From positions 1-35,960 of the IMG/VR virus record IMGVR_UViG_3300009648_000002: a stretch of 35,960 bases of DNA. The stretch is one strand, 5' to 3'. The notes beneath the pieces are model-generated. The model saw nothing but the letters and a program-made list of their open reading frames with translations, ran no database searches and was not told the DNA's origin. This DNA is from a virus. The position numbers and the translations under genes are program-made. Shown piece after piece: positions 4,413-33,594 of this stretch. Positions within the stretch are counted from its first letter, which is position 1; every line of letters begins with the position of its first letter.

Positions 4413-4435
4413 TATAGACATATATAGCGAAGTAT
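4413..4435 (+). promoter_or_regulatory. Putative archaeal promoter (TATA-like element plus conserved 14-mer atatagcgaagtat)
   Basis: tatagacatatatagcgaagtat is 19/23 identical to the motif at 10741-10763; both lie 10-14 nt upstream of an operon start codon. Confidence 0.4.
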
Positions 4436-4448
4436 GGGGAGTGGATAT

Positions 4449-7759: not shown

Positions 7760-8601
7760 GGACTGTTAAGTACCCTGGAGTGTTAACTGCCCGGACACCT
7801 ATCCATCACGGCGGCCCTGAAGTCTATGGGACGATAAAACCCATACTCACACTCCCCACACTCATAGAGGATGAGAAGGGGATGAGGGTTGAGGACGTCC
7901 CCTACATCCATGGGAATGCGATCAGGGGGTACCTCCGCCGCCTGGTCATGCAGGACTTCCTGGATCAACTCGATTATGACCTCAAATCAGCGAAGATCTA
8001 CCATTTTCTCTTCACAGGGGGCCTCCTGGAGGCTAACACAAAATCCTCTGGTATGATTGACGTGAAACTCAAATCAGGGATCCGCAAGTACATCCCACCA
8101 GCAAGTCTCTGGGGTTCTGCCCTGGGCAATCAGATGATCCAGGGCAAATTGAAGGTGGACCTTGCAGAACCGATCTGCAAGGAACTTTACTGGCAGCAGA
8201 AACAGTACTGTGACATCGATGGCCCTTCAAGTTATTCCCTGAAGGCGAGGGACTTCGGGACCCGCCTTGATAGTCTCAGGGAGTACAAGGAGGACAGAGA
8301 GGATGGAGAGCAGGCGACGCAGATGAAGTACGAGTTCGAAGTCATCGTGAAGGGTGCGAAGTTCTATCATGAATTCACACTCACAGACACTGACCCTGTT
8401 GAGGAATCATGTTTCATCCGGGCATTGAACCTGTGGAGCGAACGCCCCTACCTCGGGGGGAAGAGCGGTTCAGGGTACGGGAAACTGGATATCCGCTATG
8501 ACTATGACCCTGATGCTGAGGCAACATACCTCTCGTATGTCGAGGAGAAGGCTGACCTGATCAGAGAGTTTCTTGATGAATTACAGGCAAACTGGCGATG
8601 A
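7756..8601 (+). CDS. RAMP-superfamily protein, Cas7-like (type III Csm3/Cmr4/Cmr6-like)
   Basis: Three RAMP hallmarks in canonical order: N-terminal TPIHHGG, central VPYIHGNAIRGYLRR (compare PYIPGSSLKG.LR) and a C-terminal glycine-rich loop YLGGKSGSGYGKL; 281 aa. Confidence 0.55.
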   Translation: MRTVKYPGVLTARTPIHHGGPEVYGTIKPILTLPTLIEDEKGMRVEDVPYIHGNAIRGYLRRLVMQDFLDQLDYDLKSAKIYHFLFTGGLLEANTKSSGMIDVKLKSGIRKYIPPASLWGSALGNQMIQGKLKVDLAEPICKELYWQQKQYCDIDGPSSYSLKARDFGTRLDSLREYKEDREDGEQATQMKYEFEVIVKGAKFYHEFTLTDTDPVEESCFIRALNLWSERPYLGGKSGSGYGKLDIRYDYDPDAEATYLSYVEEKADLIREFLDELQANWR

Positions 8602-11294: not shown

Positions 11295-12618
11295 TGCGGA
11301 GAAAGACTTCCTCACTGAGACAGTCCTTAAAAACCCTTACATTCCACATAAACCATTCCTTAAGCAGGCGATATTCCTCACCAGACTCGACAGGGAACTG
11401 CTCTATGGTGGTCAGGCGGGGGGTGGGAAATCTGACGCTCTCCTCATGGCAGCCCTCCAATATGTCATGTACCCGGATTATCATGCACTCTTACTTAGGA
11501 GGACTTACAAGGAATTAGCCCTTCCAGGTGCCCTTATGGATCGTGCGGATGAATGGTTAACACCTACAGATGCTGAGTGGGTCGCGGAGAACAAGACATG
11601 GGAATTCCCATCAGGAGCAACCCTCACCTTCGGTTACCTTGAGCATGAGCGGGATAAACACCGATACCAGTCCTCAGAGTTCCAGTTCATAGGCTTTGAT
11701 GAGCTCACAGAGTTCCAAGAGTCACAGTACACATTCCTATTCAGTAGGAACAGGAAGACAGAGGACAACCCCGTCCCCTTGAGGACAAGGGCTGCGACGA
11801 ACCCTGGAGGCGTGGGCCATGAATGGGTGAAAAGACGATTCATTGAAGGCCCAGCACCATTCCTTCCATCCAGTTACACTGAAAACCCTTACCTTGACGC
11901 ATCATATGAGGAAAGCCTTGATCTCCTCGACCCGATCACCCGACGCCAACTTAAATATGGTGATTGGTCCGCGACGATAGAGGGGAGGATCTTCACTGAG
12001 GATATCCTTGATTACTATGATGAGCCGCCGACACCAGAACAGACACGTCTTGCAGTCAGGTACTGGGACCTTGCAGCCACACCTGACAGGAATGATGACT
12101 CAATAAGTGGCGGTGCGGATTGGACGGTCGGGGCCCTCCTACTCCTTGACGACTCCGGAGGCCTCTACCTTGAGGATATCATCCGATTCAGGCTTTCACC
12201 CGCGGAGGCTGAGGATATGATCATTCAAACGATCCGTAACGACTTTCAAGTTTATAGGGAGAAATACATGGCGCGGGCTGAACTGGAGGGAGGAGCCTCT
12301 GCAAGGTATGTGATGGAATCCCTCCGCAGACGCCTGGCTGGGGTGAACTTTGACGGATCCCCTGTCCAGGGTAAAAGTAAACTAGATAGGGCCAGAGCGT
12401 TGATCCCAGCATTCAGGACATCCCAGTTAAGGCTTAAGAGGGATGCTCCATGGCTCTACACATTCACGAGGGAACTCCTCGCATTCCCATCAACTGGTGT
12501 TCATGATGACCAGGTCGACGCCCTCAGCGGGGCCTACCTCCAGGTCGCTGACTTAACATCAGGGGATCCGTATGGGGCTTCAGGTAGGCGGTATAAAGGT
12601 TATGGGGTGACATATTGA
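11242..12618 (+). CDS. terL: Terminase large subunit
   Basis: Walker A-like LYGGQAGGGKSDALL near the N-terminus; C-terminal nuclease-type motif HDDQVDAL; followed by portal; start may be ATG 11263. Confidence 0.7.
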   Translation: MGRGTLRMRIKVRRGFTDAEKDFLTETVLKNPYIPHKPFLKQAIFLTRLDRELLYGGQAGGGKSDALLMAALQYVMYPDYHALLLRRTYKELALPGALMDRADEWLTPTDAEWVAENKTWEFPSGATLTFGYLEHERDKHRYQSSEFQFIGFDELTEFQESQYTFLFSRNRKTEDNPVPLRTRAATNPGGVGHEWVKRRFIEGPAPFLPSSYTENPYLDASYEESLDLLDPITRRQLKYGDWSATIEGRIFTEDILDYYDEPPTPEQTRLAVRYWDLAATPDRNDDSISGGADWTVGALLLLDDSGGLYLEDIIRFRLSPAEAEDMIIQTIRNDFQVYREKYMARAELEGGASARYVMESLRRRLAGVNFDGSPVQGKSKLDRARALIPAFRTSQLRLKRDAPWLYTFTRELLAFPSTGVHDDQVDALSGAYLQVADLTSGDPYGASGRRYKGYGVTY

Positions 12619-13979
12619 GTTTCATTGAGAGGATAAAATCTATTATCGGGTCTGTGACCAGCAGGGGCTCAAGGGACGCCCCATTACGTGTTAGAGGGTA
12701 CCGTAGGGAGAGGCCCCGACAGGTAGGCTCGGATCTGACTCTTGAACAGATAAAGTATGTGATGAGGGACACCCAGGTAGAGACAGCATACCACCTCTTC
12801 GAGAGCTTCCTCCTATCCAGGCAGATGACCCTCAAAAAGAATCGTCGTGAAGATCGTGGGGATATGGGAGGGGATGTTGAGTCATTCGTTTCAGACATCT
12901 ATGAGAGACTCATCGGATTTGAGAGAAGATTACGCCGTGACATCTACACCGCCATCCTCTACGGCTTCAGCGCCCATGAAATCATCTACACGACGAAGGA
13001 GATAAATGGGAGGATCCTCCTCACCATCGATGACCTGATACCCATCCACCCAGAGACGGTCTACTATGATGATTCATTCATCTTCGATGAGGATACAGGG
13101 GAGTTCCTGGGGTTAAAACAGAACATCCCATACCATCGTCAGGATGAAGAGGATGTCCCTGAGTACATCCCACGGGAGAAACTCCTCTTCTTCAGCTTCA
13201 AATCACATTTCAATGATCCTCGTGGGCGGAGCATCCTTGCAGGGATCTATGACAACGTCCAATTCAAAGAGGACGCGATGCGATGGCTCCTCATATTCTT
13301 GCAGAAACATGAGAACCCCACCCTCGTTGGGAAGGTCTCCAACCCCGCGAATAAGGAAGGCCTCCTGAGGAGTTTGGAGATGATTGATGAGGGCCTCACG
13401 AAGATTACTGTGGGTAAGGATGACAGTGTCGAGCTTGTTGAATCATCAAAGAATGGTGACGCCTTCTTTGAGTTTATCAAGTACAATGATAACGTTATAC
13501 TCCGCCAGTTCCTTATAGGCACCCTCCTGCTCGGTCAATCCGACAAGGCGAGCGGCAGTTATGCGCAGGCCATGACCCAAGAGTCTGTTCTCAGGACAGC
13601 CCTGGAGGGTATACATAAGGACATCGCCGGATCCATTAATGAAGTTATCCTCCGCCTTGTTGAGTACAATTTCGGTGAGGATGCTGTTAAATCTGCTCCG
13701 CTTATAGAGTTTGAGACGTTCACTGATAGACACACGATTGAATTGCTGCAAGCCCTTCAGGGCTATGCGACCGGCCTCCTGATTGACACTGATTCAGAGT
13801 GGTTCAAGAAGCTCATCGAGTACAGTATACAGGACGCTACCGGTGAATCAATCCCATTATCCCCTGAGACCCGCGTAGCACCGGTGAATGACCTGGAGGA
13901 CCTCCCACCTGGCGAGTTACCGGAGATGGAATCACGTCTTGACGATCTACTGAGGCACGTGCAAGGCTCTGGCAGGTGA
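12615..13979 (+). CDS. Portal protein
   Basis: 454-aa protein directly after terL with overlapping start/stop; size and position typical of portal. Confidence 0.6.
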   Translation: MSFIERIKSIIGSVTSRGSRDAPLRVRGYRRERPRQVGSDLTLEQIKYVMRDTQVETAYHLFESFLLSRQMTLKKNRREDRGDMGGDVESFVSDIYERLIGFERRLRRDIYTAILYGFSAHEIIYTTKEINGRILLTIDDLIPIHPETVYYDDSFIFDEDTGEFLGLKQNIPYHRQDEEDVPEYIPREKLLFFSFKSHFNDPRGRSILAGIYDNVQFKEDAMRWLLIFLQKHENPTLVGKVSNPANKEGLLRSLEMIDEGLTKITVGKDDSVELVESSKNGDAFFEFIKYNDNVILRQFLIGTLLLGQSDKASGSYAQAMTQESVLRTALEGIHKDIAGSINEVILRLVEYNFGEDAVKSAPLIEFETFTDRHTIELLQALQGYATGLLIDTDSEWFKKLIEYSIQDATGESIPLSPETRVAPVNDLEDLPPGELPEMESRLDDLLRHVQGSGR

Positions 13980-18808: not shown

Positions 18809-19792
18809 ATGCCACCAGTACGATATTTTGGTTTTAAGAAGGAAACAAGCTTCGGGACTGAGGCAACAGACTCCAAGTATGATATCACGATAGCAGAGTC
18901 AGTCAGCCTTGATGTCCCTGATGACCCTGTGATACCTTTACCCACATTATCCGCGTTCCCGCGCGGACAAATCGCAGGGTACTACGCGAACAAGGGCTCA
19001 TTCGAGTACCCAATAGATATCAAGACGATAGGATACCTCCTCTACTTTGGTATGGGAGGTTATACCTTCACTTCAGGGACACCAAACAACACACACGAAT
19101 TCTATGCCTCCCAATCCAAGACGCTACCATCATTCACGACACGTGTGGGTAAGGACACCTTTGAGCACGTGTTCCTGGGGACTGTTGTGAACAAGATGAA
19201 CGTCTCAGTAGAGGATGAAGTCGCGGTGATGAAGACGGATCTCCTCGCTAAGAAGGATAAGAAGGATAATATAAGGACAACCCTGAATGAGCCGAGCGGG
19301 ATATTCCCAATAGCGTTCTACAAGGTGAACGTATCGATTGGAGGCACTGATGAATCCCCTAAGATCAAGTCCTGGGAGCTTGAATATGATAATGGTATCA
19401 AGGAGGATTCTGGTCGCGGATTCGGATCCAGGTTCCCCTACGCATTCTATACAGGGGATAAGTCCTGTAGCCTCACCCTGAAGATGAAGGACGATGACAG
19501 TTCTATTCTTGAAGCCTTCTGGGGTGACAGTTCAGGTGCTAGTGAAAGCTCACCCGCCACATTCCAGGTTGTCACCACATTCGACGCCGGCTCAGCAGGC
19601 ACTATGACCGTAACATTCCCTAAATGTTACTACAAGAAGATTGACACATCAATTAAGGGTGCTGAGCCCAGGGAACCACAAGTAGAACTCGGATGCCTTG
19701 AAGATGAAGTAACACTCAATGATGGCACCACAAAAGTAACCACACCTTGCTATGTCAAGATAGTGAACTCCGAGACAAGCGTATCAACCTAA
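18809..19792 (+). CDS. Putative major tail protein
   Basis: 327 aa, upstream of the chaperone and tape-measure genes; RBS gaggtga. Confidence 0.45.
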   Translation: MPPVRYFGFKKETSFGTEATDSKYDITIAESVSLDVPDDPVIPLPTLSAFPRGQIAGYYANKGSFEYPIDIKTIGYLLYFGMGGYTFTSGTPNNTHEFYASQSKTLPSFTTRVGKDTFEHVFLGTVVNKMNVSVEDEVAVMKTDLLAKKDKKDNIRTTLNEPSGIFPIAFYKVNVSIGGTDESPKIKSWELEYDNGIKEDSGRGFGSRFPYAFYTGDKSCSLTLKMKDDDSSILEAFWGDSSGASESSPATFQVVTTFDAGSAGTMTVTFPKCYYKKIDTSIKGAEPREPQVELGCLEDEVTLNDGTTKVTTPCYVKIVNSETSVST

Positions 19793-19814: not shown

Positions 19815-20258
19815 TTGAGTAAAAACAAGGAGAACATCCAATTATTTGAGGAACTCCTGAAAGGGAGGGAAGGATACGTTGAACACAAGGTTGAGGGTCT
19901 TGAAAGACCAGTGAAACTAAGACCACTTACATGCTCTGAGATACTGGAACTGCAGAAGATAGAGAAAGAGGGGATGAAGGCCACAATCGATATAGAGGGC
20001 CTCATGAATATGTCCCCAGGTGAGCGCAGAGCAGCTGTGAAGGACCAGACACAGAAACTGAAACAAGAACTTGACTTCGCGAAGACACAGGAGGCCAGGG
20101 CCAAGGTGAAAATGACCGCGGTGGCCTACTCCTCAGAGACCCCGATGGAGATAATCCAGAGGCTCCCTCACCGTGTCCTGAATGACCTGTTCATGAAGGT
20201 CATGGAGATCAGTAGCGTTTCAGAGGAAGAACTGGACACACTCAACCAATTTCGCTGA
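19815..20258 (+). CDS. Putative tail assembly chaperone
   Basis: Small acidic helical protein directly upstream of the tape-measure gene. Confidence 0.45.
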   Translation: MSKNKENIQLFEELLKGREGYVEHKVEGLERPVKLRPLTCSEILELQKIEKEGMKATIDIEGLMNMSPGERRAAVKDQTQKLKQELDFAKTQEARAKVKMTAVAYSSETPMEIIQRLPHRVLNDLFMKVMEISSVSEEELDTLNQFR

Positions 20259-20524: not shown

Positions 20525-23500
20525 ATGGATGAGATAAGTGTAATTGTAAGACTATTAGACGAGTTCAGTGGGAACCTGTCCTCAATGGTAACAACTGCAG
20601 AGTCAGCCCTTTCAAGCCTCGAGGCCACAGCAAACTCATCATCTTCATCATTATCTAAGATGGGTTCTGCAGCGACAGAGTCAGGTCAGGCGCTGAGTGA
20701 AGCTGCGAAGGGTGCTGAGGAACTTGGGAGCTCCACATCGGCTATAAATTCAGCGCCATTATCTGATGTCTCAGGCGCTGCGAATGAAGCGAGCAATGCG
20801 TTGAATGACACGAGCCAAAGCGCTGAGAATCTCTCCACGAGTCTGACGAATGTGAATGCGAAGGATCTTATCTCAGCATCATCCAGCACCCGTGAACTTG
20901 GCACAGAACTTGATAAAAGTGCTGAAGCGGCTGATAAATTAGCTGATAAAACAAAGGAGGCTAATGAGGAGGTTGAGAAGACCGGTAAGGATACTGTGGG
21001 CCTTGCAGCCATCACGGCGGCCCTGAGCACACTGACTGCTGGGATGGAGATGGCTGCAAGGGAAGCAACTAACCTGAACGCAACATTCCAGAAGATGGGA
21101 TCAGCCAAGATGCCAGAGCCAGAGGTAAGGAGCTTCGTAGCATCTCTCATCAGCGCTAGACTACCACTTGAGGATGTCCTCGCCTACCTGAAGGTTTTGA
21201 AACAGAGCGGACTTCAGAGTGCTGACTCGTTACGTCGTGGTGTGTATGCTCTGAATGACCTCAGCCTTGCTACAGGCGTGAATAGAGATGAAGTTATCAG
21301 GTTTACGAATTCATTGATTGTTATGGGTGTCCGCCTCGATGAGATCCCTAAACATTATAATGCTATCGCATATGCTCAGGCGAACATCGTGGGCGGTTTT
21401 GGTACGTATATCAAGTGGATGGAGAAGTTTGACGCGTCATTTAAGGAGTTAGGGCTCACAGTGGATCAGACTGTTGTCCTCATCGCTGCAGCGACGAAGA
21501 AGTTTGGTGGTGGTCGTGCAGCGTACACTGGTATGAGCCGGGCGCTCAAGGAGTGTAATGGAGATCTCTCAGTCCTCGAACAAAAGTTAGGCTTGCAGCC
21601 AGGGCTCCTCAGCCGAGCATCCGCGATGACATCAAAGTACTCTGGGAGTATCGAAAAGAAATCAAAGATAATGAAAGAGAATGTCACGATATATGAGCGC
21701 CTCCAGGAGGGTGTGGAGAAGCTCCGTATTCAGTTCAGCTGGCTAATCGCCCCGATCCTAAGTGTAGGGGGCCTGATTGGGGGTCTTGTGAGTACATATA
21801 TGGCCTATCAGACGTACCAGTCAGCTGTTGCTACTGCAGCGAACACTCAGACACTCGCAGAGATTGCGAAGGCAAAGGCACTCTTCACATCCACCGTGGC
21901 GACAGAGGCCCAGGCTGGTGCTGAGACAACAAAGACAGCAGCAACTGTAACATCCACTCTTGCGACTGTGAGGAACACTGTCGCGAACCAGGCCCTCATA
22001 TTATCTACGTATGGTTCAGCCGCGGCCTTGCAGACTGCGGTGGGGGCTGCGATGGCCCACGCGGGTGCTGTGGCGGTCGACACGGAGGCCCAGAATATGG
22101 GTATCCTTGCATCCCTCAGGTACACTGCGGCGCTGGCCTGGCAGCGGATCGTCACGGCTGCGACGACCGCCTACACGTATGCCCTCGCGGCGGCTCAGTG
22201 GGTCTGGAACGCGGCCCTCGCAGCCTCCCCGATCACATGGATCGTCTTAGCTGTGGCTGCTCTTGCAGCAGCCCTTGTGTATCTCTACTATAATTATCAG
22301 CCAGTTACGGATGCTGTGAACAAGTTTGCAGAAGGTCTTAAGTGGGTTGGTAGTGTTATCTATGGGTACCTCCTTGGAGCGTTTAATGCGCTGAAGGGTG
22401 CTCTCTCTGGGGTTGGTTCAGCGATTCAGGGGGCTCTTGGCGGTGCGTTGAACTGGATTATGGGTGGTCTCAAGCAATTAGCTGGTTTCATCTATTACGT
22501 CTTCTTCTCGTTCAAGTTCGTGGATGATATGGCCTCCAGGTTCGGTTTCCTGGGCCTGGCGATATCATTCGCCATCAATCCAATCAGGACAGTCATTGAA
22601 TACGTGAAACAACTGAAGATAGCCTGGGATTCATGGAGCAAGACCAGTGAGGCCCAGAGGGTCTTCGCCGAGCTGGGAGCGGCGTTCAATGAGCTGAAGG
22701 CTGCGTTCGGTGAGGTCTGGGCCGCCTTGCAACCGGTCTTCAAGGCACTCGGGGAAGCGTTCAATGAACTCAAGAACGCGTTGTTCCCGGTCCAGGAGAC
22801 CAGCAGGGCTGTGCAGTCCACTGGTAAGAGCGCCTCCTCCGCGTCCGGCCCGATACAGGTCTTCGTGGAGATCATCCGGGCCTTCGCATGGATCCTCACG
22901 AACGTGGTGGTCCCAGCCATCAGGATACTGGCGGAGTGGATCCATTACCTCGTCCCTGTCTTCCAGGCCATTGGATTCGCCATATCCGCAGTGATACAGG
23001 TGATGGTGTTCATCGGGCAGGTGGTCTGGAACGTGATCACATTCCTCACGAAATTCGGTCAGGCCCTCCAGATGCTGATTAGTGGCCATATCACCTTCTC
23101 CCAGTTCATGAGCGTAGTCTGGAACCTGTTCAAGGCCACGGTTGGCCGGATACTCCTCGAGGTGGTCCTCGCAGTGGGCAGGTTCGGGGCACAGTTGATC
23201 GGGAAAGCTGTGGCAGCGGCTTTAGGATTCGTTAACTCATTCCTATCATTCATAAGGAGCCTACCTGGACGTCTCTGGATTATGCTCCTCATCGTAGTGC
23301 AGAGGATCATCGCATGGGCAAACAAGCTCAGGGAGATGGCCCGTCAGGCTGCCTCTAACTTTGTCTCAAAATTTATTGGAGGAATCACTGGACTCCCTGG
23401 ACGTGTGGGTAAGGTGATGTGGGATGTGGTGAACGCGATTAAGAACAAAGTGAATGACGCCTATAACGCGGCGAAACAGTTCGGTCAGAACGTGTGGAAC

Positions 23501-24937
23501 GGTATCAAGAGTGCGCTGCACATTAAGAGTCCGAGTATCATCTATAAACAGATAGAAGCCGACACAGCCCTCGTGAATCAGCGTTTCAGGAGCATGGCCA
23601 GCTCTGCAAGGGCTGCTGCAAGCACGTACGCGAAAGGGATACGTGAGGGTATGGATATTGCAGGGACAAATGTGCCTATAGACTCCACCCTGAAATCTTC
23701 ACCTGTTGCGGGTGCTGTGGATGAAACAAGGAAGGCAATCACTGACATGCATGGTGTCACAAGGACAGGACTCACTAACATCGTGAATACATGGAGTGGC
23801 ATCGAGGAAACAACACAGAAGACGCGTGACTCCTATAATGCTTCAGTGGATATCACACGAAACGCTATGACCACAATGAGCACCACGACAAAGACCACAA
23901 TGACCCACATCAAGACAGGGTTCAACTCAATGAAAACTGAAGTAATCTCCGCCGCCAGCCGCACAAAGACAGGAGTCACCGGGCACCTGAACACACTCTC
24001 AACCAACATCCGCAGATTCTACAACCTCGTCATGAACCCAGGGGCCGGTGGCCCCGCAGGAGGGCCCTCAAGAAGGGTGTTCACAACTCCCAGCATCCCC
24101 AAGCTTGGATGGGGAGGCCCGCCACGAGCCATGACACCCACACCACCCCTAACAGGCCCCGAAGCCTATACTGCAAGGGGAGCGCGCCGCCTCCAAAAAA
24201 TCGCTGAGGAATACTACAAGATGCTATCCTGCCCATCATGCTATGGGGCTGGCTGGGATTACTCAACGAGGATGACAGGATGGGTGAACCGGACAGTTGA
24301 CAGGTACCGTGTAGGTTGGCTCCCAGGGATCACCCTGAAAGCCGGGGATTTCTCAACGTATCCTCCACGAGGACTTGCAGGGAACCTTGCAAGGTTCATC
24401 CCATTCATTTCAAGCGTGATAGGGCGAACACATTACAGGTTCTATTATGGTGATAGTGGCCTGTCACCGGCCGAACTCCTCAGGGTAGGCTCATTTAACT
24501 GTTATGATGGGGCCCGCCTTGTTGTCGCCTTCGCCAGGGCCTTCGGGCTCCCTGCAAGTATCCGTTGCGGCTTGAGCTGGGGAGGTATACCCCATTGCGC
24601 AGCAAATGTCGCGGGGATGTGGTTTGACACAACCGCCTTCCAGCAAGGATATGGCTGGACAAGTCCCCGGGTAACAGGGTATGGCGGCCCAACAAGCCCA
24701 GATATAGGTGTGGGCCCTGCAAGGATTGAGCACCATGCAGGGGACGTCCACATCAACGTCGAAGTCAATGGGGCCGCGGGATTGGATGAGAAGGAACTCG
24801 CGAAGAGGATAATGGAGGCGGTCACGGATAACAGGACAATCAAACGCCTCACAAGCCACCCCGTCTTCCTCCGCAGATTCGATGAGGAGTACGGGAGGTA
24901 CGCTGTGAATGATGCGAGGAGGACTGGTAGCAGATGA
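20525..24937 (+). CDS. Tail tape measure protein with C-terminal Pei-like cysteine peptidase domain
   Basis: 1470 aa; serine/alanine-rich helical N-terminus, central hydrophobic segments, position after the chaperone. Confidence 0.8.
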   Translation: MDEISVIVRLLDEFSGNLSSMVTTAESALSSLEATANSSSSSLSKMGSAATESGQALSEAAKGAEELGSSTSAINSAPLSDVSGAANEASNALNDTSQSAENLSTSLTNVNAKDLISASSSTRELGTELDKSAEAADKLADKTKEANEEVEKTGKDTVGLAAITAALSTLTAGMEMAAREATNLNATFQKMGSAKMPEPEVRSFVASLISARLPLEDVLAYLKVLKQSGLQSADSLRRGVYALNDLSLATGVNRDEVIRFTNSLIVMGVRLDEIPKHYNAIAYAQANIVGGFGTYIKWMEKFDASFKELGLTVDQTVVLIAAATKKFGGGRAAYTGMSRALKECNGDLSVLEQKLGLQPGLLSRASAMTSKYSGSIEKKSKIMKENVTIYERLQEGVEKLRIQFSWLIAPILSVGGLIGGLVSTYMAYQTYQSAVATAANTQTLAEIAKAKALFTSTVATEAQAGAETTKTAATVTSTLATVRNTVANQALILSTYGSAAALQTAVGAAMAHAGAVAVDTEAQNMGILASLRYTAALAWQRIVTAATTAYTYALAAAQWVWNAALAASPITWIVLAVAALAAALVYLYYNYQPVTDAVNKFAEGLKWVGSVIYGYLLGAFNALKGALSGVGSAIQGALGGALNWIMGGLKQLAGFIYYVFFSFKFVDDMASRFGFLGLAISFAINPIRTVIEYVKQLKIAWDSWSKTSEAQRVFAELGAAFNELKAAFGEVWAALQPVFKALGEAFNELKNALFPVQETSRAVQSTGKSASSASGPIQVFVEIIRAFAWILTNVVVPAIRILAEWIHYLVPVFQAIGFAISAVIQVMVFIGQVVWNVITFLTKFGQALQMLISGHITFSQFMSVVWNLFKATVGRILLEVVLAVGRFGAQLIGKAVAAALGFVNSFLSFIRSLPGRLWIMLLIVVQRIIAWANKLREMARQAASNFVSKFIGGITGLPGRVGKVMWDVVNAIKNKVNDAYNAAKQFGQNVWNGIKSALHIKSPSIIYKQIEADTALVNQRFRSMASSARAAASTYAKGIREGMDIAGTNVPIDSTLKSSPVAGAVDETRKAITDMHGVTRTGLTNIVNTWSGIEETTQKTRDSYNASVDITRNAMTTMSTTTKTTMTHIKTGFNSMKTEVISAASRTKTGVTGHLNTLSTNIRRFYNLVMNPGAGGPAGGPSRRVFTTPSIPKLGWGGPPRAMTPTPPLTGPEAYTARGARRLQKIAEEYYKMLSCPSCYGAGWDYSTRMTGWVNRTVDRYRVGWLPGITLKAGDFSTYPPRGLAGNLARFIPFISSVIGRTHYRFYYGDSGLSPAELLRVGSFNCYDGARLVVAFARAFGLPASIRCGLSWGGIPHCAANVAGMWFDTTAFQQGYGWTSPRVTGYGGPTSPDIGVGPARIEHHAGDVHINVEVNGAAGLDEKELAKRIMEAVTDNRTIKRLTSHPVFLRRFDEEYGRYAVNDARRTGSR
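24431..24730 (+). other. Transglutaminase-fold Cys-His-Asp peptidase domain, pseudomurein endoisopeptidase (Pei)-like, within the tape measure
   Basis: SFNCYDGARLVVAFARAFGLPASIRCG...GGIPHCAANVAGMWFDTT shows ordered Cys/His/Asp in a G.CyD.A...A.GiPaR context. Confidence 0.55.
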
Positions 24938-25134
24938 CGGATAAGATAGTGCTCGGATTCGAGGCCTTCAGGGCGAATGGGAGCAGAGTAGTCTCAAGGA
25001 TCGAAACAAGCCTCTATAACCCTTACACTGAGGGAGTAACCTACGGTGTCAGCGTCCCAGCGATGAAGGTCTCAGGGGAGGATGATCTCTGGGTGCAGGA
25101 CGTCGGAGGATTCAGGGTTAGGGTGGTGATCTGA
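24934..25134 (+). CDS. Small tail-associated protein (66 aa)
   Basis: Coupled ORF between the tape-measure and large tail protein genes. Confidence 0.4.
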   Translation: MTDKIVLGFEAFRANGSRVVSRIETSLYNPYTEGVTYGVSVPAMKVSGEDDLWVQDVGGFRVRVVI

Positions 25135-27902
25135 TGCCAACAGCTCGACTTTATGGTTCCTCGTTCACGTATCAGAGGGTGGAGAAGAACCAGTACGGGA
25201 CCTATACGGAGACAGTCTGGAATAATACGGGGAACCTGAAGTATGATGATGGGAAGTACGCTAAGACATCCCTCATAGCCTCAAAGTCAGGGACGGCCTC
25301 CAAGCCGGGCCGTTTAATAGCTAAGGGATTTTCAGGGTCAATCCCTGACAATTCTAAGATTAATAGTGTCACTGTGGAGTGGGAGGAGTACATACGTAAC
25401 CCTAATGGCGGGACAACGGGCGTCCCGAACATCCCAGCAAGGTACGTCTGCCTCTATTATGGTTCTTCCTGTTATTCATCCACTAAGACTGTATCATCAG
25501 CAGTCCCCACCTCAGCGACGAAGAGGACCCTGACATGGTCCTCTGGTGAGTTGCCCTCAGGATTCTCCAAGTCTACTCTGACATCATCATCATTCGGGGC
25601 CTACCTGAACCCTGCGAGGAATACGACGTACAATCCTGGGTACATGTACGTTGATCACATCCAGTTGATCGCTGATTACACCACACCCACTTATTCTGTG
25701 AGTATCACGCGTACGGGTGGGGATAAGCCCAGGGACACTGTAACGTACACTTTCACGCTCACTAATACGAACAACACGCCTCACACTGTCCCGGTTGCCT
25801 GCACCATCACTCTCCCATCTGATTTCACCGTAACTGAGGCCAGCGGGGATGGGACATACACTGCAGGGTCATGGTCTGCCCAGGTCAAATCCACGTACAC
25901 AGCTGTCCTCACAGTGAAAGGGTACTACACGGGCCCCGGATCCAAGCAGGTCTCCTTCCAGGAGTCTGTGACGGGCCAGTCCACGACGAACACATTCACA
26001 GTCACTAATCCGGCCTGCGGGATTGTCCAGGTCGACTACTCCCACATACCCAAGGGAGTCCAGACCCAGCTCACCTACACCGCCACAGACCTCGGAACAT
26101 CCTCAACGACGGTATCGATACCATTCCCGGCCTGGATCACCGTCAACGGGTACAGTGGGGATGGGTCATATTCGAATGGGGTCTGGACCATCCCCAGCGG
26201 AGGCTCCGCACCCCGGACAGCCACCATCACCCTCACAGTCACCGCATCACAGGATGGCGTCTATATGCAGCAGATCAAGGACGCCACCCAGACCCTCCAC
26301 AGCCTCAGGTGCCTCATCACCCGCACAGACCTCCCAGATCCGCCGATCTATCAGGTCAGATTCCCATCTGATCGCCTCAGGGATCTGCCATGGGGTCAAC
26401 GCCCACTGTACCTCCTCTTCCCCGTCCAAGTGGTGAAGAAGAAGACAGAATGGCTCTACAGTAGCCATCAGCTCGAATACAGTGTCGTCGCTGATGGCCA
26501 AGTGATCTCCAGGTTCACCCCCCCGACGGGGCAGCCATCCCTGATCACCGCGAGACTCCCTGACACCCAGGTCACGGACCTCCGGGTCTACCTCCACATG
26601 GCCAATGGCATGGAGCAGGACTTCCAGTACCTCATCGCAGATCCTGTTATCTCAGAATCCCCGGTCTACAGTGGAGGGGGTGGGGAATGGCGGAGCCTGG
26701 TCCTGGATGACTACGTAGCGGTCCTGGAGCCACATGGATCCATCGGGCCCCTGGAACTCCTACCAGTGGAGCCGGACCTCCCGGACGGGGCGATCATAAC
26801 AGGGTTCAGGGTTTCATACACCCTCAACACCACGACCCTTGCAGGTGACGGGTCACAGGGCGACGCGGATGTAGCCTTGACGCTACGTATACACGCAGAG
26901 GATGCTGTCTATGGTGAGAAACGACTCATACAGTCAACTGGCTGCTATGAGGAGGGCTGGCGCTATGATAAGTGGGGCCTCGTGGAGGCGGCCACAGGGA
27001 AGCTCCCTGAGACTGAGGATCCCTCCACTGGGGCGGCCCTATTCACGTCTGGGTGGCTCGATGAGGTGTACGTCTCCTTCATCTTCGAGAACCCCACAGA
27101 CAGTGAGGTGGTCGTTGAGGTCAGGGATGTGGCCCTGGAGATCTATTACAGCCTTGATGATGACCTGGGACATGCAGTGTACTTTAATGGTGTCCCCTCA
27201 ACGAGTTTCGGGGCCGTGCTCCTGAATGAATCGGAGTTGCAGTTCGGTGGGAAGCTTAAACTGGACCTGGTGGATTTAACGGGCTGGAATGAGAATTATA
27301 TTAAATCCGTGAAGATTGAGCCCATCTCCTTCAAACTCAAATTCTACATTGGCGGTGAGAATATAGAGGAGGCGACGAGGATGGTCCGCGAATTCCTATC
27401 CCTTATCACCCCAGATATCAACATGTACGGCCTGCCCGAGCCGATGGCCCTCACCATGAGTTGGGATGACACAACATACTACTATGTCCTCCAGGATGAA
27501 ATCGATGTGAAGAACCACGTCTCCGGATATGAGGTCACAGTACCCGTCACAGTCCCCTCTGGGCATGGGTATGGCCCCATGGTGAAGATGCCGGCCTCAG
27601 GGACCCATAAGAGCCTTATACCGCCCCGCCCAATCGTCTACGTCGATGTGAATGAGGATGTGGAGAGCGTCACAGTCTCTGAGAGGGTCACCCGGGCCAC
27701 CCTAACCCTGAACACCCCTATAACCGCCCCTAAGACCCTGATAATTGACTCAGAGGATCGGAGGGTGACGGATACTGATGGGGAGGAATACACTGGAAGA
27801 CTATCACTGAACTCCGAATTCTTCACCCTCCAACGCAGATACGACTTCACAGCCTCAGAGGGTGCGACGGTACGGATGATTATACTGAGGGAGGCGAGGT
27901 AA
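25134..27902 (+). CDS. Large tail/baseplate protein (922 aa)
   Basis: Position after the tape measure; Thr/Ser-rich beta-type sequence. Confidence 0.5.
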   Translation: MPTARLYGSSFTYQRVEKNQYGTYTETVWNNTGNLKYDDGKYAKTSLIASKSGTASKPGRLIAKGFSGSIPDNSKINSVTVEWEEYIRNPNGGTTGVPNIPARYVCLYYGSSCYSSTKTVSSAVPTSATKRTLTWSSGELPSGFSKSTLTSSSFGAYLNPARNTTYNPGYMYVDHIQLIADYTTPTYSVSITRTGGDKPRDTVTYTFTLTNTNNTPHTVPVACTITLPSDFTVTEASGDGTYTAGSWSAQVKSTYTAVLTVKGYYTGPGSKQVSFQESVTGQSTTNTFTVTNPACGIVQVDYSHIPKGVQTQLTYTATDLGTSSTTVSIPFPAWITVNGYSGDGSYSNGVWTIPSGGSAPRTATITLTVTASQDGVYMQQIKDATQTLHSLRCLITRTDLPDPPIYQVRFPSDRLRDLPWGQRPLYLLFPVQVVKKKTEWLYSSHQLEYSVVADGQVISRFTPPTGQPSLITARLPDTQVTDLRVYLHMANGMEQDFQYLIADPVISESPVYSGGGGEWRSLVLDDYVAVLEPHGSIGPLELLPVEPDLPDGAIITGFRVSYTLNTTTLAGDGSQGDADVALTLRIHAEDAVYGEKRLIQSTGCYEEGWRYDKWGLVEAATGKLPETEDPSTGAALFTSGWLDEVYVSFIFENPTDSEVVVEVRDVALEIYYSLDDDLGHAVYFNGVPSTSFGAVLLNESELQFGGKLKLDLVDLTGWNENYIKSVKIEPISFKLKFYIGGENIEEATRMVREFLSLITPDINMYGLPEPMALTMSWDDTTYYYVLQDEIDVKNHVSGYEVTVPVTVPSGHGYGPMVKMPASGTHKSLIPPRPIVYVDVNEDVESVTVSERVTRATLTLNTPITAPKTLIIDSEDRRVTDTDGEEYTGRLSLNSEFFTLQRRYDFTASEGATVRMIILREAR

Positions 27903-27903
27903 T

Positions 27904-29721
27904 ATGCGGTTCAAGGTCGGCCCGCTCCTCATACTGAACCCTGATGAAACCCCTCTCGTCTACCTTGACAGTGACGCCGTCCAGGTCACAGAGAAAGTCA
28001 CATTCAACTCTTTCAGGGAGCTACGGGTCAACCATCCTCTCATCCACGATGATGGGAGGGATTACAGCAGGTACATCCGCCCCGGGATGAAGATGTTCTG
28101 GTATACCACCACTGAGGGCGACTCCTGCCTCTACGTCATCGACGGGGCTGTTAAGTACGAGTATGACGCTAACACCGTGGATTTCACGGCCCATGAGGCC
28201 GCCGCCGAGTTGCAGGACCTCCCACCAGTCTGGGTGGATCCTGTGGTCGCTGACAACTTCCAGGACGCCCGGATAGGCCAGCAGTGGACGACCACGACGA
28301 ACGGGGGGCAGATCACTGAGGGCAAGGGGTACCTGCAGCTCTACGCCTCGAAGGGTACACAGATCGTCTGGGGCGGCGCCTCCACGTATAGGTCGCCCTG
28401 CATCGCCCACACACCCCTACTTGAGGGGAATAGCTTCACATTGATCACCAGGATCATCCCCATGCCCCCCTTGAAGAATGAAGCTCCATTCGGCCTCGCC
28501 ATCACCAACAACAACTTCGAGGCATTCTATAGGATCGGCAGGCATTGGAGCAGTGACGGGAAGCACTATGTGAGGACAGACTACCGTAACCCCGGCGGTA
28601 CCGAGACCCAAGTCCAGTCTGATGAGTATAAGGACCTCTCTGTGATGGCGGCGACATGGTTCATGCTCGAAGTGGACGCTGATGGGAAAGCCACAACCTC
28701 ATGGAGCCCTGATGGTGTCTCATGGACAAGTCACACGACAACACAGTTAACCTGGACTCCTACCCGGGCGGGGGTCTTCATCAGGAACTGGAGCCCTAAC
28801 TACAACCCCGTGAAGGCCAGGGCAACGACTTTCAAGTACATCCCCTGGAGGGGGCGACTCGTCGATGTGACTGACGAGTACCTCACCAACCTGACCGGGG
28901 GCAGGTTCACCGCCACAGGGACGCCCAGCGGCCTCCAGGCACGTCTCGGCGGCCTCCAGGACCCCTACAGTATCATCATGAAGGTCTGCGAGGATAACGG
29001 CCTCCAGGCCTCTTTCAGGTACAGGTATGACGCGGATGATGGTGGGATAAAGCGTGAACTCCTCCTCACCTCGGTGGATGATACTGTGAGGGGTGTGCTC
29101 CGCCTCGGTGAGGACATCGCCGGCCTGGAGGTGACCATCGATGAGTCCAGTGTTGCATCCGCCGCCGCGCCCAGGTTAACGGCCCTGAATGATGCCGAGA
29201 AACTGATCCCTGTCCTGCAGGAGTACCGTGAACTCCAGGTCACCAGGGGTGCGGGTATACCCTCGCAGGTCTACACGGACTCCCAGAACCGGCAGGTCTA
29301 CGGGCCTAATGTCTCCGCGCCCTATGGGAAGACAGGGGGTGTGTACGTTGTCGTTGCAGAGGACTCTGACGCCGAATACAGGAGGATAATAACCCCTGGG
29401 GTCCCAGATGAGGGCCGGGTCGTCTACGTGGACGTGTCCCAGGCAGATCACCCTTTGAACCTGTACTGGGACTTGGCAGGGAAGCTGGACGAGGCAAGGA
29501 CACGGAAGATCACTCTCACCTTTGATTACATGGAGAAAAGCCCTGATGCGGCGGAGTTCAGGTACAGGGTAGGGGACCTCCTCAGGATCATCCTCCCAGG
29601 TGAGGATGAGGCGGCGGAGTTCAGGGTCCAAACGACGGAGAAGAACCCCTACGAGCCCGCTGCCTTGAAGATGGAGCTCGGCGAGGAACCCATCAAATTC
29701 ACAAGGATAGGAGGTAGATAA
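27904..29721 (+). CDS. Tail/baseplate protein (605 aa)
   Basis: Position in the tail module. Confidence 0.5.
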   Translation: MRFKVGPLLILNPDETPLVYLDSDAVQVTEKVTFNSFRELRVNHPLIHDDGRDYSRYIRPGMKMFWYTTTEGDSCLYVIDGAVKYEYDANTVDFTAHEAAAELQDLPPVWVDPVVADNFQDARIGQQWTTTTNGGQITEGKGYLQLYASKGTQIVWGGASTYRSPCIAHTPLLEGNSFTLITRIIPMPPLKNEAPFGLAITNNNFEAFYRIGRHWSSDGKHYVRTDYRNPGGTETQVQSDEYKDLSVMAATWFMLEVDADGKATTSWSPDGVSWTSHTTTQLTWTPTRAGVFIRNWSPNYNPVKARATTFKYIPWRGRLVDVTDEYLTNLTGGRFTATGTPSGLQARLGGLQDPYSIIMKVCEDNGLQASFRYRYDADDGGIKRELLLTSVDDTVRGVLRLGEDIAGLEVTIDESSVASAAAPRLTALNDAEKLIPVLQEYRELQVTRGAGIPSQVYTDSQNRQVYGPNVSAPYGKTGGVYVVVAEDSDAEYRRIITPGVPDEGRVVYVDVSQADHPLNLYWDLAGKLDEARTRKITLTFDYMEKSPDAAEFRYRVGDLLRIILPGEDEAAEFRVQTTEKNPYEPAALKMELGEEPIKFTRIGGR

Positions 29722-29929: not shown

Positions 29930-31654
29930 ATGGCATCATACACCGCGACACAGGACGGGCTATGGAGCCAGGCCAGCACATGGGGTGGGTCCGGTGTCCC
30001 GGGGAACGGTGACACCGTAACCATCCCAGCTGGGCGGACGGTGACCTTCGACGTCGACCAGTCCAGCTTCGCATCAGGACTGGCCGGTTTAACAGTGGAT
30101 GGGGTCTTATCATGGAAGACTGACACCGTAACGTACCTCAAGATGGCCACTGATATCAATATTGGTGGTACGGGCACCCTACAGGTTGGCAGACCAGATA
30201 ATCGGATCCAGAGGCCCGCGCAGGGGTCACAGGTCAGGGCAACGATAAAACTGCAAGGATCCAACAGCAAAATCACAACCCCGAACATCTATGCCTATGG
30301 ATGGGATGAACGCCTGAACAGGACCACGCTCGCAGCCAACGCCTCAGCCGGGGCCACACAGGTCGTACTCTCCGAGGATATGAACCTGCAGGCCGGGGAC
30401 CAGATCCTCATCGGGGCAGGGACTGTGAACGACTATATGACGGAGTCTGCGAAGGGAGTGTACACCGTGTCCAGCTATGACCAGTCTACGAGGACTGTGA
30501 CCCTCACCGGGGCCCTGGGCCATGGACGGCTGGCAGGAGACTACGTAGGAGTATATAACAGGACAATATTCTTCGATACAGTAAGAAATTCGTCCTTTGA
30601 ATCGTATAATCCTGGTTATTATCGTTTTGAAGGCGTGACAATCAGGAGCAGTATCGGGTGGACATCCACACTTAATATGCCTTTGGCTGACGGAGTCCTT
30701 GCAGATAAATGCACATTCATCCCTTCAGGAACCTTCACAGGGACGTATGGGGGGCAATATGGTTCTCCTTATATTGTCCAGAACAGCACATTTTATAACA
30801 CGAGCGTGTCTTGGTCGCAGAATACAACGTTCAAGGACTGTGTCTTCATTCAAAGAGAATTAAAGGACTATGGGTTCATAACTTATCCTGCTGGGGCTCT
30901 ATTTGATGGCTGTTGGTTCCAGAACGCCCATGCAGTCGTATATAGATACCCTGATTTGGGTTGGGGGTTCAGTCAGCACAAGGGCTGCAAGGCCCGTAAC
31001 CTTCAAAGTGGAGCATACGGATCCTTCTCGCATCCTGTAACATGTTATAATATGGACTTCGGCGGATACACGCCAGTTAATAGGCTGTATTATCATCATA
31101 GGCTCTATGATTGCCTTGCACCCACCATCAGCATCGATTATGGGGCGGCTACACTGGAGGGTGCCCTGGAGTCCTTCAACCACAACCAGGTCCCCGGAGA
31201 CTACCGCCTCTACCAGTACGGAGGCGTCACACTCAAAGTCACAGACATCCCCGCACCAGGACGCACGTACAGCCATAAAACAAACCTCACATCCACTTAC
31301 AGCCCCGCGGTGGTGGGCCGGCCCCTCGGTGTCCTGGATCCCGGCGAGACCCTGGTCCTGACGGCGTGGATACGGAAGGATAAGACGTCAGCAGAGATGC
31401 CATACACCCCCCGCGTCCAAGTCCTACAGGGTGACAACTGGATCCATAAGCGGGACACCGATGTCCTGAAGGAGACCCTCATGGACCCCTCCAAAGTGAA
31501 TGAGTGGGACAAGGTCGTGTTGAAGTACCGTAACAAGGAGTCATACCCTGTACGGGTTTCGGGGCGTGTGAAGATGATGGGGTCCTCGGGGAATGTGTGG
31601 CATGTCCTCGGTGATGATGTCTCCGAGCGCGGTAAACTCGTATTCATCAAATAG
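29930..31654 (+). CDS. Putative tail fibre / receptor-binding protein
   Basis: 574 aa, glycine/threonine-rich beta-type sequence; last large gene of the tail module. Confidence 0.45.
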   Translation: MASYTATQDGLWSQASTWGGSGVPGNGDTVTIPAGRTVTFDVDQSSFASGLAGLTVDGVLSWKTDTVTYLKMATDINIGGTGTLQVGRPDNRIQRPAQGSQVRATIKLQGSNSKITTPNIYAYGWDERLNRTTLAANASAGATQVVLSEDMNLQAGDQILIGAGTVNDYMTESAKGVYTVSSYDQSTRTVTLTGALGHGRLAGDYVGVYNRTIFFDTVRNSSFESYNPGYYRFEGVTIRSSIGWTSTLNMPLADGVLADKCTFIPSGTFTGTYGGQYGSPYIVQNSTFYNTSVSWSQNTTFKDCVFIQRELKDYGFITYPAGALFDGCWFQNAHAVVYRYPDLGWGFSQHKGCKARNLQSGAYGSFSHPVTCYNMDFGGYTPVNRLYYHHRLYDCLAPTISIDYGAATLEGALESFNHNQVPGDYRLYQYGGVTLKVTDIPAPGRTYSHKTNLTSTYSPAVVGRPLGVLDPGETLVLTAWIRKDKTSAEMPYTPRVQVLQGDNWIHKRDTDVLKETLMDPSKVNEWDKVVLKYRNKESYPVRVSGRVKMMGSSGNVWHVLGDDVSERGKLVFIK

Positions 31655-32070: not shown

Positions 32071-32805
32071 ATGATGAAGAAGGAGTACAGGTTAGATGAA
32101 TTCCTGGATATGAAGCGTCGCTGGGAGGCCTTCAGAATCCAGAAGGGCAGAAAACCTAACTACGTGACTGATAAGGCGGGTGAAAAGATCCCAAGAGACG
32201 TGTTTAATGATATGCTACTAAGATATGAACGCTTCGTTGCACTCAACCATAGAGATCCAGCCCTCATCAAAGTGAAGGGTAATACTGCTGATGACGGGTG
32301 GGTTACCACTGGGTATTTCCAGCAGGACTATCAGGACACGGATCACACCTGCGGCCCCAGCAGCCTCCAGATGGCTCTCTCTGCCCTTGAGTGCAAGATA
32401 TCGGAGTCGGAGTTAACAAAGGCGGCTGGGACAACATTGAAGGGAACAGACCATAAAGGTATGTTGAAGGCTATCACTTATGCAGCGAATAAGTGTAAAA
32501 AGAAACTTAAAGCCGAATTTAAAAAATTCAAGGCAATAGGATGGGATTCGATCATTAAACACGTTGAGGGTGGCGGGGAAGTCATAATACACCTTGTCAC
32601 CCGGCCAGGCCTTGACACGGATGTGAATGGTCGAGTGGTCTGGCGTGGAGCATTCGGTCACTATGTCTACCTCGTCGGCGTGAACAGGAAGAAGGGAGTG
32701 GTGAGGATAGCTGACCCAACGAAGGGGATTCGAGAGTTCACTCAAGGACAAGTAGTTCAGGCGATAAATAACCTGTCACAACCCAGCATACTCCTAATAA
32801 AGTAG
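32071..32805 (+). CDS. Papain-like (C39-like) cysteine peptidase, candidate cell-wall peptidase/lysin
   Basis: Q...DHTCGPSSLQMALSAL (Gln, then Cys in a CG.xSL context) with downstream GHYVYLVG...RIADPTKG (His, Asp), as in the peptidase C39 arrangement. Confidence 0.5.
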   Translation: MMKKEYRLDEFLDMKRRWEAFRIQKGRKPNYVTDKAGEKIPRDVFNDMLLRYERFVALNHRDPALIKVKGNTADDGWVTTGYFQQDYQDTDHTCGPSSLQMALSALECKISESELTKAAGTTLKGTDHKGMLKAITYAANKCKKKLKAEFKKFKAIGWDSIIKHVEGGGEVIIHLVTRPGLDTDVNGRVVWRGAFGHYVYLVGVNRKKGVVRIADPTKGIREFTQGQVVQAINNLSQPSILLIK

Positions 32806-32820: not shown

Positions 32821-33594
32821 TTGGTAGATCAGTATGAACTCCACCATAAACGACGCCTTCATATCATACCACTCGGGGATCTTCATGTAGGGGCGAGGAA
32901 TTGCAATTATGACTATATTGAGTACGCGATTAGGACGATTAATCAATTGAAGGGCCCTAAACGTGTGTATATGATGGGCGACCTCCTGGAGACTGCTGAT
33001 AAACGTGTTGGTGGCAGTGTCTTTGAGCAGGACATGAGCCTCGATGATCAGGTATGCTTTATCAGGGATCTTTTGAAGCCAATAAGTGATGATATTGTTT
33101 TCTTCTGCAGGGGAAACCATGAGGAGCGCCTTATTAGGATGTATGACCTTGACCTGACCCGGCTGCTTGCTGAGGACTTTGGGGTGGGGTATGGGTATCA
33201 GTGCCATGACGAATTCCTTGTAAATGGTCGTCAGTTTAAGGTGATGGCGTATCATGGAAAGGGGAGTAGCAGGTCACCCTACCTCGCGTATGGGAAGGTG
33301 GTGAGGGAGCTTGGGAATTTTAAGGCTGACCTGTATCTTTACGGGCACCTCCATATGGCTGGGGCGTACAGGGAGTTCTATTGGAGTCCTGAGGGTGTCT
33401 CTCAGAGGGTTTATGTCCTGTCAGGTCATTTCATGAAGTACTGGTCAGGTTATGCTGAGGCTGGTGCCCTCACATATAGTCCAGAAGGGTTTGGTGTGTG
33501 TAACCTGAACAAGGACTGCTTTATCTCATATAACCCGTTCCATATACATGAAAGGAGGCCTGATCTATTAGTTTGTGGTGATGGTGTAGGATAA
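32821..33594 (+). CDS. Calcineurin-like metallophosphatase
   Basis: Ordered motifs GDLHVG, MMGDLLE, GNHEE and GHLH match the metallophosphoesterase signature; probable TTG start. Confidence 0.6.
   Translation: MVDQYELHHKRRLHIIPLGDLHVGARNCNYDYIEYAIRTINQLKGPKRVYMMGDLLETADKRVGGSVFEQDMSLDDQVCFIRDLLKPISDDIVFFCRGNHEERLIRMYDLDLTRLLAEDFGVGYGYQCHDEFLVNGRQFKVMAYHGKGSSRSPYLAYGKVVRELGNFKADLYLYGHLHMAGAYREFYWSPEGVSQRVYVLSGHFMKYWSGYAEAGALTYSPEGFGVCNLNKDCFISYNPFHIHERRPDLLVCGDGVG

Follow-up and report, generated by a model that had tools for sequence, protein, structure and literature searches.

We analyzed the tape measure protein (TMP) gene of a viral genome, IMG/VR record IMGVR_UViG_3300009648_000002 (positions 1 to 35,960; this whole stretch of 35,960 nucleotides is hereafter called the window), and in particular the C-terminal end of its product, which we assign with near certainty, on fold and homology, to a family of peptidases related to the pseudomurein endoisopeptidases (Pei) of methanogen viruses. 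The gene occupies 20525..24937 on the plus strand and encodes 1470 amino acids. This open reading frame (ORF) is taken as the TMP because it matches 12 PHROG tape-measure families (E-values of 1e-16 to 1e-3) and, weakly, PhageMin_Tail, and because of its place in the gene order. Upstream lie a tail tube protein gene (18809..19792, plus strand; Phage_tube_2, E 2e-12) and, between it and the TMP gene, a chaperone-sized ORF (19815..20258); downstream lie genes for a Dit-like distal tail protein of 922 residues (25134..27902, plus strand; SPP1_Dit and Sipho_tail matches) and a Tal-like tail-tip protein of 605 residues (27904..29721, plus strand; a weak Prophage_tail match and a ConA-like domain). 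A Kyte-Doolittle scan with a 19-residue window found two hydrophobic, transmembrane-like segments in the plus-strand product, one at residues 563-591 (22211..22297, maximum 2.28) and the other at residues 806-841 (22940..23047, maximum 2.23). TMPs that enter the membrane of the host typically have such segments. The ORF thus combines the features of a siphovirus TMP, namely a long gene, a position between tube/chaperone and Dit/Tal genes, TMP profile matches and hydrophobic segments, and it is syntenic with the TMPs of the viruses PhiF3, Drs3, vir075, vir249 and MSTV1.

A Gly/Pro-rich linker at about residues 1171-1220 (24035..24184, plus strand; NPGAGGPAGGP...GWGGPPRAMTPTPPLTGPE), read directly from the sequence, separates the TMP body from a C-terminal module, all of which is encoded on the same strand. 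The module opens with a conserved N-terminal part (GWDYS ... PPRGLAGNL; 24251..24394) that is invariant in the five closest relatives, followed by the peptidase core with its transglutaminase fold at about residues 1280-1390 (24362..24694). An original prediction, made from the sequence alone, had flagged the interval 24431..24730 (TMP residues 1303-1402) as a Pei-like cysteine peptidase domain on account of an ordered Cys-His-Asp arrangement in the motifs NCYDGA, IPHCAANV and WFDTT. We found these motifs where it had placed them, with FNCYDG starting at residue 1324, GIPHCAA at residue 1354 and WFDTT at residue 1366, and the cysteine codon was correctly located at 24500-24502. The predicted nucleophile is Cys1326 (codon TGT, 24500..24502) in an N-C-x-D motif, the predicted general base is His1357 (codon CAT, 24593..24595), and the predicted third member of the triad is Asp1368 (codon GAC, 24626..24628). 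Alignments show a variable C-terminal tail after the core (residues 1401-1470, 24725..24934) that ends in the R-x-x-G motif of the family. Nearly all family members have a conserved R-x-x-G-[VIL]-COOH ending (RRTGSR in the window, 24890..24934), which may mark the protein for docking or processing at the tail tip.

To collect homologues of the domain, an exhaustive HMMER search was run against 1.84 billion representative proteins, giving 278 clusters (at 50% identity) with E<=1e-3 and 167 with E<=1e-10. The exhaustive search was needed to reach this number, a word-indexed protein search having returned only 5, and then 12, relatives. In an alignment of 158 retrieved proteins plus the window, where conservation counts the sequences covering the column, the cysteine, the histidine and the aspartate are each present in 158/158 homologues, at identities to the window as low as about 25%, and N1325, Y1304, Y1307, W1352 and T1370 are almost as conserved as the triad. 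The Pfam Transglut_core model matches the last 270 residues of the TMP at E 1.4e-4 (22.6 bits, residues 1305-1378). Because of this match and the invariance of all three residues, the ordered arrangement in the original prediction is upheld as more than a chance occurrence. Position within the protein is constant too: in the 158 proteins examined the domain ends no more than 75 residues from the C-terminus (median 10), and nearly all homologues are 1000-4300 residues long (median about 1450, longest 4289). Among 13 strain variants of the same TMP (94-99.9% identical), 6 of 111 core sites vary, as do 20 of the last 70 residues.

Single-sequence comparison revealed little of this relationship. 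With the 270-residue C-terminus as the query, phmmer returned nothing from the PDB sequences but spurious antibody matches, so a family profile was required. When a profile of nine family sequences was run with hmmsearch against 177,635 PDB sequences, the only significant matches were PeiP (4.5e-4) and PeiW (5.6e-4). For a direct comparison with the Pei enzymes (peptidase family C71) we collected 24 C71 proteins and aligned 16 of them with the catalytic domains of PeiP, PeiW and PhiF1, giving a set of 19. The hidden Markov model (HMM) built from this set matches 23 of 159 TMP domains at E<1e-3, and reciprocally the TMP-domain HMM matches 14 of the 19 Pei sequences (2e-6 to 9e-3). The hhalign probability rose from 76% with three Pei sequences to 89.4% with all 19, and reached 95.6% (E 1.3e-8) once the TMP-domain alignment had been extended to 159 sequences. 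The residues that align are those around the predicted active site: Y-x-[FY]-Y-Y-[NG] of the TMP family falls on KYKYYYND of Pei, N-C-x-D on the NCTD motif that holds the Pei nucleophile, and W-x-G-x-x-H on WYGH with its histidine, so that Y-x-F-Y-Y-G, F-N-C-Y-D and W-G-G-I-P-H of the window correspond to YxYYYND, NCTD and WYGH of Pei. Among seven relatives scanned separately, Transglut_core matches four at E<=0.003; vir075 scores 25.5 bits, above the gathering score, while PhiF3, vir249 and a further relative (P0005) score 18.6-19.4 bits, and Drs3 and MSTV1 have no match in the Pfam scan. The vir075 domain also gives a faint match to the C71 model PF12386 (12.9 bits, E 0.095), whose gathering score is 22.

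The predicted structure agrees with the sequence relationship. In a template-free AlphaFold2 model of the C-terminal fragment, made from a 13-sequence alignment, the core (fragment residues 80-180) has a predicted local distance difference test score (pLDDT) of 71-90; the Gly/Pro linker falls below 50, and the GWDYS...PPRGLAGNL region is poorly modelled up to residue 1271. A helix at fragment residues 126-139 begins at the cysteine, the histidine is in the second of two strands that come after it (155-162), and the aspartate directly follows a third strand, at 165-167. As modelled, a helix carrying the cysteine, a strand carrying the histidine and then the aspartate correspond to the arrangement of papain and the transglutaminases. 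Foldseek searches of the PDB with this model found 3isr (4e-4), the transglutaminase 4xz7, PeiP (7e-3) and PeiW (3e-2). All top fold matches are transglutaminase-like, and the match lists contain LapG, TgpA, TG2/3 and factor XIII; the fold of the PeiW and PeiP catalytic domains is thus present in the predicted structure. In a library of viral structures, the best matches were the orthologous TMPs of PhiF3 and Drs3, followed by PeiP of psiM2, with no bacteriophage TMP among the matches. The Pei-like identity claimed in the original prediction therefore stands at the level of fold and homology, as supported by the PDB profile search, by hhalign at 95.6% and by the Foldseek matches to PeiP and PeiW.

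We next consider which viruses carry the domain. Using the domain of the window as a tblastn query against 50,697 phage genomes, we obtained seven records representing five viruses, and the match was always at the 3' end of the TMP gene. These are PhiF3 of Methanothermobacter (64% identity to the domain of the window), Drs3 of Methanobacterium formicicum, vir075 of Methanobrevibacter gottschalkii, vir249 with a Methanobacteriales host, and MSTV1 of Methanobrevibacter smithii. The identical seven records came back when two divergent members of the family served as queries, and neither query matched any bacteriophage or haloarchaeal virus in this collection. A scan of 185,579 species genomes with one degenerate peptide pattern, which does not amount to a census, found four loci, of which three are proviral copies in Methanobrevibacter contigs; in two of these contigs, one of them 171 kb long, the domain terminates ORFs of 1435 and 1453 residues. 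The fourth locus (L006) is on a 5.6-kb contig binned as a Synergistaceae bacterium, and a TMP fragment with the domain (P0001) is on a 19.6-kb contig of an NCBI metagenome-assembled genome labelled 'Bacteroidales bacterium'. These two copies are most likely mis-binned viral contigs and give no evidence of bacterial hosts. Among viruses and proviruses with known hosts, the domain is thus restricted to those of the pseudomurein-walled Methanobacteriales. Together with a PeiR-like lysin gene (see below) and a tail module that is closest to that of PhiF3, this makes a Methanobacteriales host, as the original prediction had proposed, well supported for the virus in the window. Given a GC content of about 50% and PhiF3 as the closest tail module, the host is plausibly a Methanothermobacter or Methanobacterium.

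Several results weigh against reading the domain as a Pei-type enzyme of such viruses. The mean pLDDT of the structural model is only 60.8. The Transglut_core score of the window is 0.4 bits below the Pfam gathering score of 23, its TMP has no PF12386 (Peptidase_C71) match at E<=1, and it reaches only 5.7 bits against the purpose-built Pei HMM of 19 sequences. Profile alignments with Pei end about 10 residues past the histidine, leaving the aspartate region outside them. The conserved C-terminal segment of Pei (SATKTG-RPLG-CC) has no counterpart in the TMP family: SATKTG-RPLG-x-CC and a VKC cysteine are invariant in the Pei alignment and absent from the TMP domains, which there have TTAFQxGYGWTSP, and the spacing between histidine and aspartate is 11 residues in the TMP domain compared with 17-24 in Pei. 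The Pfam scan found no pseudomurein-binding repeat (PMBR, PF09373) in the 1470-residue TMP. PMBR is not universal among Pei homologues (PMC2989375), and the Pei homologues P0172 and P0177 are examples bearing on this point. The viruses psiM2, psiM100 and PhiF1 also have hosts of this order but lack the TMP domain in the tblastn searches, so the domain is not indispensable; we considered the psiM2 TMP as a hidden carrier and rejected this after a direct comparison found no such domain. Lastly, hosts are known for fewer than half of the 278 clusters, and the restriction just described is one seen among viruses with known hosts. Comparison with C71 and transglutaminase-core profiles, which the original prediction had called for, was therefore only partly favorable: the C71 threshold was not reached and Transglut_core fell marginally short, whereas homology was established by profile-profile comparison. 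As judged from sequence comparisons, the TMP domain is homologous to C71, which is also its closest relative known, but it is not a member by family thresholds, and we treat it as a distinct sister family within the transglutaminase-like group. A published classification of papain-like enzymes puts C71 in that group too (PMC10318531).

The window also has a separate lysin gene. At 32071..32805 (plus strand) lies a PeiR-like endolysin candidate, which in Pfam comprises a weak pseudomurein-binding repeat and a Peptidase_C39 domain (E 2e-11). The possibility that the TMP domain is a copy of this endolysin was rejected, as hhalign gives a probability of only 0.2% against the C39 protein. Endolysins of PeiR-like and PeiW-like (C71) classes were distinguished in the report on MSTV1, a virus that has a C71 endolysin (PMC11375127) besides its TMP domain. 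In PhiF3, ORF27 is of the C39 type like the lysin of the window and has only the PMBR region in common with PeiP; its GenBank label is "similar to PeiW". With a separate exit lysin in the window and PhiF3 and a C71 endolysin in MSTV1, the TMP domain is therefore not the endolysin. In PhiF1 (MK994522, 48149..48817), a C71 Pei-like gene, ORF48, overlaps the end of the 1165-residue ORF47 by 10 nt, and this Pei gene adjoining a large gene without known function may be an intermediate between free and fused Pei. Directly after the lysin gene of the window is a gene for a calcineurin-like metallophosphoesterase (32821..33594, plus strand).

The domain, with its intact and invariant predicted triad, is very probably catalytically competent. 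In siphoviruses such as lambda, T5 and HK97, the TMP has its C-terminus in the tail tip and is the first component to leave once the receptor is bound; the C-terminus has the same place in SPP1-type tails. For this reason, a domain at the C-terminus would be delivered onto the pseudomurein sacculus. Bacteriophage TMPs are described as filling the tail lumen, leaving on receptor binding and in some cases carrying wall-degrading domains (PMC6116005). By analogy, we suggest that the C-terminal ~190 residues beyond the Gly/Pro linker form an active Cys-His-Asp peptidase of the transglutaminase fold, which on adsorption would contact the sacculus and locally hydrolyze its cross-link peptides, most likely at an isopeptide bond as Pei does (PMC2989375). 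Opening of the wall would then let the hydrophobic TMP segments reach and insert into the membrane for passage of the DNA. The enzyme would be expected to require reducing conditions, like Pei, and at the end of infection lysis would fall to the separate and unrelated PeiR-like enzyme (32071..32805). That the TMP domain cleaves pseudomurein at entry is, from the parallel with bacteriophage TMPs, a probable role. Taken as a whole, an active Pei-homologous Cys-His-Asp domain, forming a distinct family found only at TMP C-termini and opening the wall at entry, with a separate lysin for exit, is what we consider likely.

The alternative that survives best is that the peptidase acts in tail maturation, cutting the TMP itself or other tail proteins and not the host wall. 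A cysteine peptidase fold with an intact triad would serve this role too, the flexible Gly/Pro linker ahead of the domain is a possible cleavage site, and some phages are known to process their TMP, the trimming of lambda gpH at its C-terminus being a comparison. We nevertheless regard it as unlikely: by sequence as well as by structure the domain is nearest to wall hydrolases, elsewhere related tail modules lacking it still assemble and, as the strongest counterpoint, a generic assembly role leaves the confinement to pseudomurein-walled hosts across 50,697 genomes unexplained. Less probable again is that the domain is a transglutaminase or transpeptidase that makes covalent isopeptide links, such as would tether the tail tip to pseudomurein or join tail proteins to one another. 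One triad serves both chemistries, the best Pfam match is Transglut_core, and true transglutaminases are among the fold matches (4xz7, TgpA, TG2/3 and factor XIII), but in structure and sequence its top neighbors are hydrolases, namely the Pei enzymes, along with LapG and similar proteases, and prokaryotic transglutaminase-like proteins are mostly considered to be proteases (PMC10318531). We think it equally improbable that the peptidase has another envelope or host target, such as the S-layer, surface glycoproteins or a defence protein. Fold does not predict substrate, and both the aspartate-side half and the flanking GWDYS/PPRGLAGNL region are unlike Pei; against this, the phyletic range tracks pseudomurein-containing hosts, the Y-x-F-Y-Y and N-C-x-D motifs around the active site are common to both families, and the nearest relatives are Pei. 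A non-catalytic plug or binding domain, or a chance motif match, which the marginal single-sequence scores (22.6 bits for Transglut_core and only antibody matches from phmmer) might suggest, is largely refuted and hardly credible given a triad invariant in 158/158 homologues down to about 25% identity and independent sequence and structure searches that agree on one enzyme family.

The rest of the window places this tail protein in a mosaic genome. The same TMP is found on sequences of 35,867-35,978 bp from several ENA/SRA samples (L013-L015), and since these assemblies of one genome begin at different points, the window probably represents the whole of a circularly permuted genome of about 36 kb. 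When 24 kb of the window was compared by megablast with the 50,697 phage genomes, nothing matched; no deposited genome is closely related to this virus. Its head module is Mu-like: the portal gene (12615..13979, plus strand; Portal_Mu, E 7e-39) has its best phage matches in Bacillus pumilus and B. licheniformis phages at about 25% identity, with no match to a methanogen virus at E<=1e-10. The genome therefore joins a bacterial-phage-like head module to a PhiF3/Drs3-like tail module. That the whole virus is PhiF3/Drs3-like (Anaerodiviridae) was considered and rejected on the Mu-like, Bacillus-phage-like portal, only the tail/lysis module being shared. Within the tail region, the Dit-like protein (25134..27902) is unusually long, with its Dit signatures confined to the last 200 residues and a long N-terminal extension that has a weak ASH/Ig-like match; a possible reading is an "evolved Dit" whose inserts bind carbohydrate. 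A 574-residue protein with a G8 domain (29930..31654, plus strand), encoded downstream of the genes for the tail tip, may bind the receptor or glycans. The early region encodes a Csx16/Cas_VVA1548 protein of 112 residues (4434..4772, plus strand; Pfam E 4e-29, and TIGR02620 at 58 bits, above its cut-off) and a RAMP/Cas7-like protein of 281 residues (7756..8601, plus strand; PF03787, E 4e-8, with weak Csf2/Csm3 matches under the cut-off). These two Cas-like genes could be a viral anti-CRISPR decoy or the remnant of a type III/IV module. There is also a gene for a PCNA-like sliding clamp (2450..3214, plus strand; PCNA_N, E 3e-9), and no tRNA gene was found in the window.

Standard annotation pipelines overlook the domain. 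Orthologues are named "hypothetical protein", "prominin" or TMP in GenBank, where the vir249 and vir075 entries name the gene only "tail tape measure protein"; PHROG 38386 includes the domain under the label "unknown function", the precomputed Pfam entry for the TMP of the window is empty, and NCBIfam has no model for the domain. The literature that we searched contains nothing that joins tape measure, pseudomurein and transglutaminase, although a prior mention in Medvedeva et al. 2023 is possible; papers that name both tape measure and pseudomurein draw no connection between them, and no virion-borne pseudomurein hydrolase is described. Many bacteriophages bring a wall-opening enzyme of their own to infection, something that the literature searched does not describe for any archaeal virus. 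A 2024 review of archaeal virus entry and egress presents pseudomurein enzymes for exit only (PMC10791045), and a 2025 survey of viral lytic proteins leaves out virion-associated lysins and mentions Pei as an endolysin only. The lysin borne on a TMP and the lineage of Pei enzymes are each known; what is new is their combination, previously undescribed in the literature searched.

To our knowledge, how tailed archaeal viruses cross the envelope of their hosts is largely unknown. If active, the domain would provide a concrete entry mechanism for viruses of Methanobacteriales, the order that dominates among methanogens in the human gut, the rumen and digesters, and the "lysin on the tape measure" solution would have arisen for pseudomurein too, and not for murein only. 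A TMP ending in this domain is also a host marker predicting a pseudomurein-walled host. PeiW/PeiP and PeiR are the only tools known to us for lysing these methanogens, for permeabilizing them in fluorescence in situ hybridization and as proposed anti-methanogen agents; an active TMP family would add a third large and diverse set of candidate pseudomurein-lytic enzymes beside them. A more far-reaching combination of claims has an outside chance of holding in full: that the domain is the first virion-associated wall enzyme of any archaeal virus; that its family (at least 278 clusters at 50% identity) is a large, unannotated pseudomurein-active group distinct from PeiW/PeiP and PeiR; that its transglutaminase-type chemistry has a bond specificity unlike that of Pei, cutting another pseudomurein linkage or joining the tail tip covalently to the wall through an acyl or isopeptide bond; and that its diversity adds to host range within Methanobacteriales.

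Among known systems, the closest enzymes are PeiW of prophage psiM100 and PeiP of phage psiM2 (MEROPS C71, Pfam PF12386; structures 8jx4 and 8z4f). Family C71 is characterized by cutting the epsilon-Ala-Lys isopeptide bond of pseudomurein, in a reaction that depends on thiols and divalent cations. The TMP domain differs from them in sequence (about 15-20% identity, below C71 HMM thresholds), in being fused to a structural protein of 1470 residues where Pei are soluble endolysins of 220-305 residues, in lacking PMBR, the VKC cysteine and the SATKTG-RPLG-CC segment, in its shorter His-Asp spacing, and in its presumed role at entry rather than exit. With prokaryotic transglutaminase-like cysteine proteases (PF01841; LapG 4fgo, Cytophaga 3isr and TgpA 6g49) it has the fold and the triad in common. 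The PeiR-like endolysins (C39 plus PMBR, as in phi-mru of Methanobrevibacter ruminantium) are likewise cysteine peptidases from viruses of pseudomurein-walled methanogens, but they belong to a different papain-like family, are encoded by their own gene and have no detectable similarity to the TMP domain.

In architecture, the counterparts are Pb2 of T5 and the TMPs of the mycobacteriophage TM4 and the S. aureus phage phiIPLA35, long non-contractile tails in which the TMP itself contains a wall-degrading domain (PMC6116005), as is predicted here. In the window and its 158 homologues the domain is likewise fused to the tail protein. Like those phages, the virus in the window has hydrophobic segments in its TMP and a separate exit endolysin, and the delivery from the tail tip during genome injection described for them (PMC6116005) is proposed here by analogy. 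Their domains attack murein as muramidases, lytic transglycosylases or metallopeptidases, whereas the TMP of this archaeal virus ends in a predicted Pei-related cysteine peptidase and the host wall it faces is pseudomurein.

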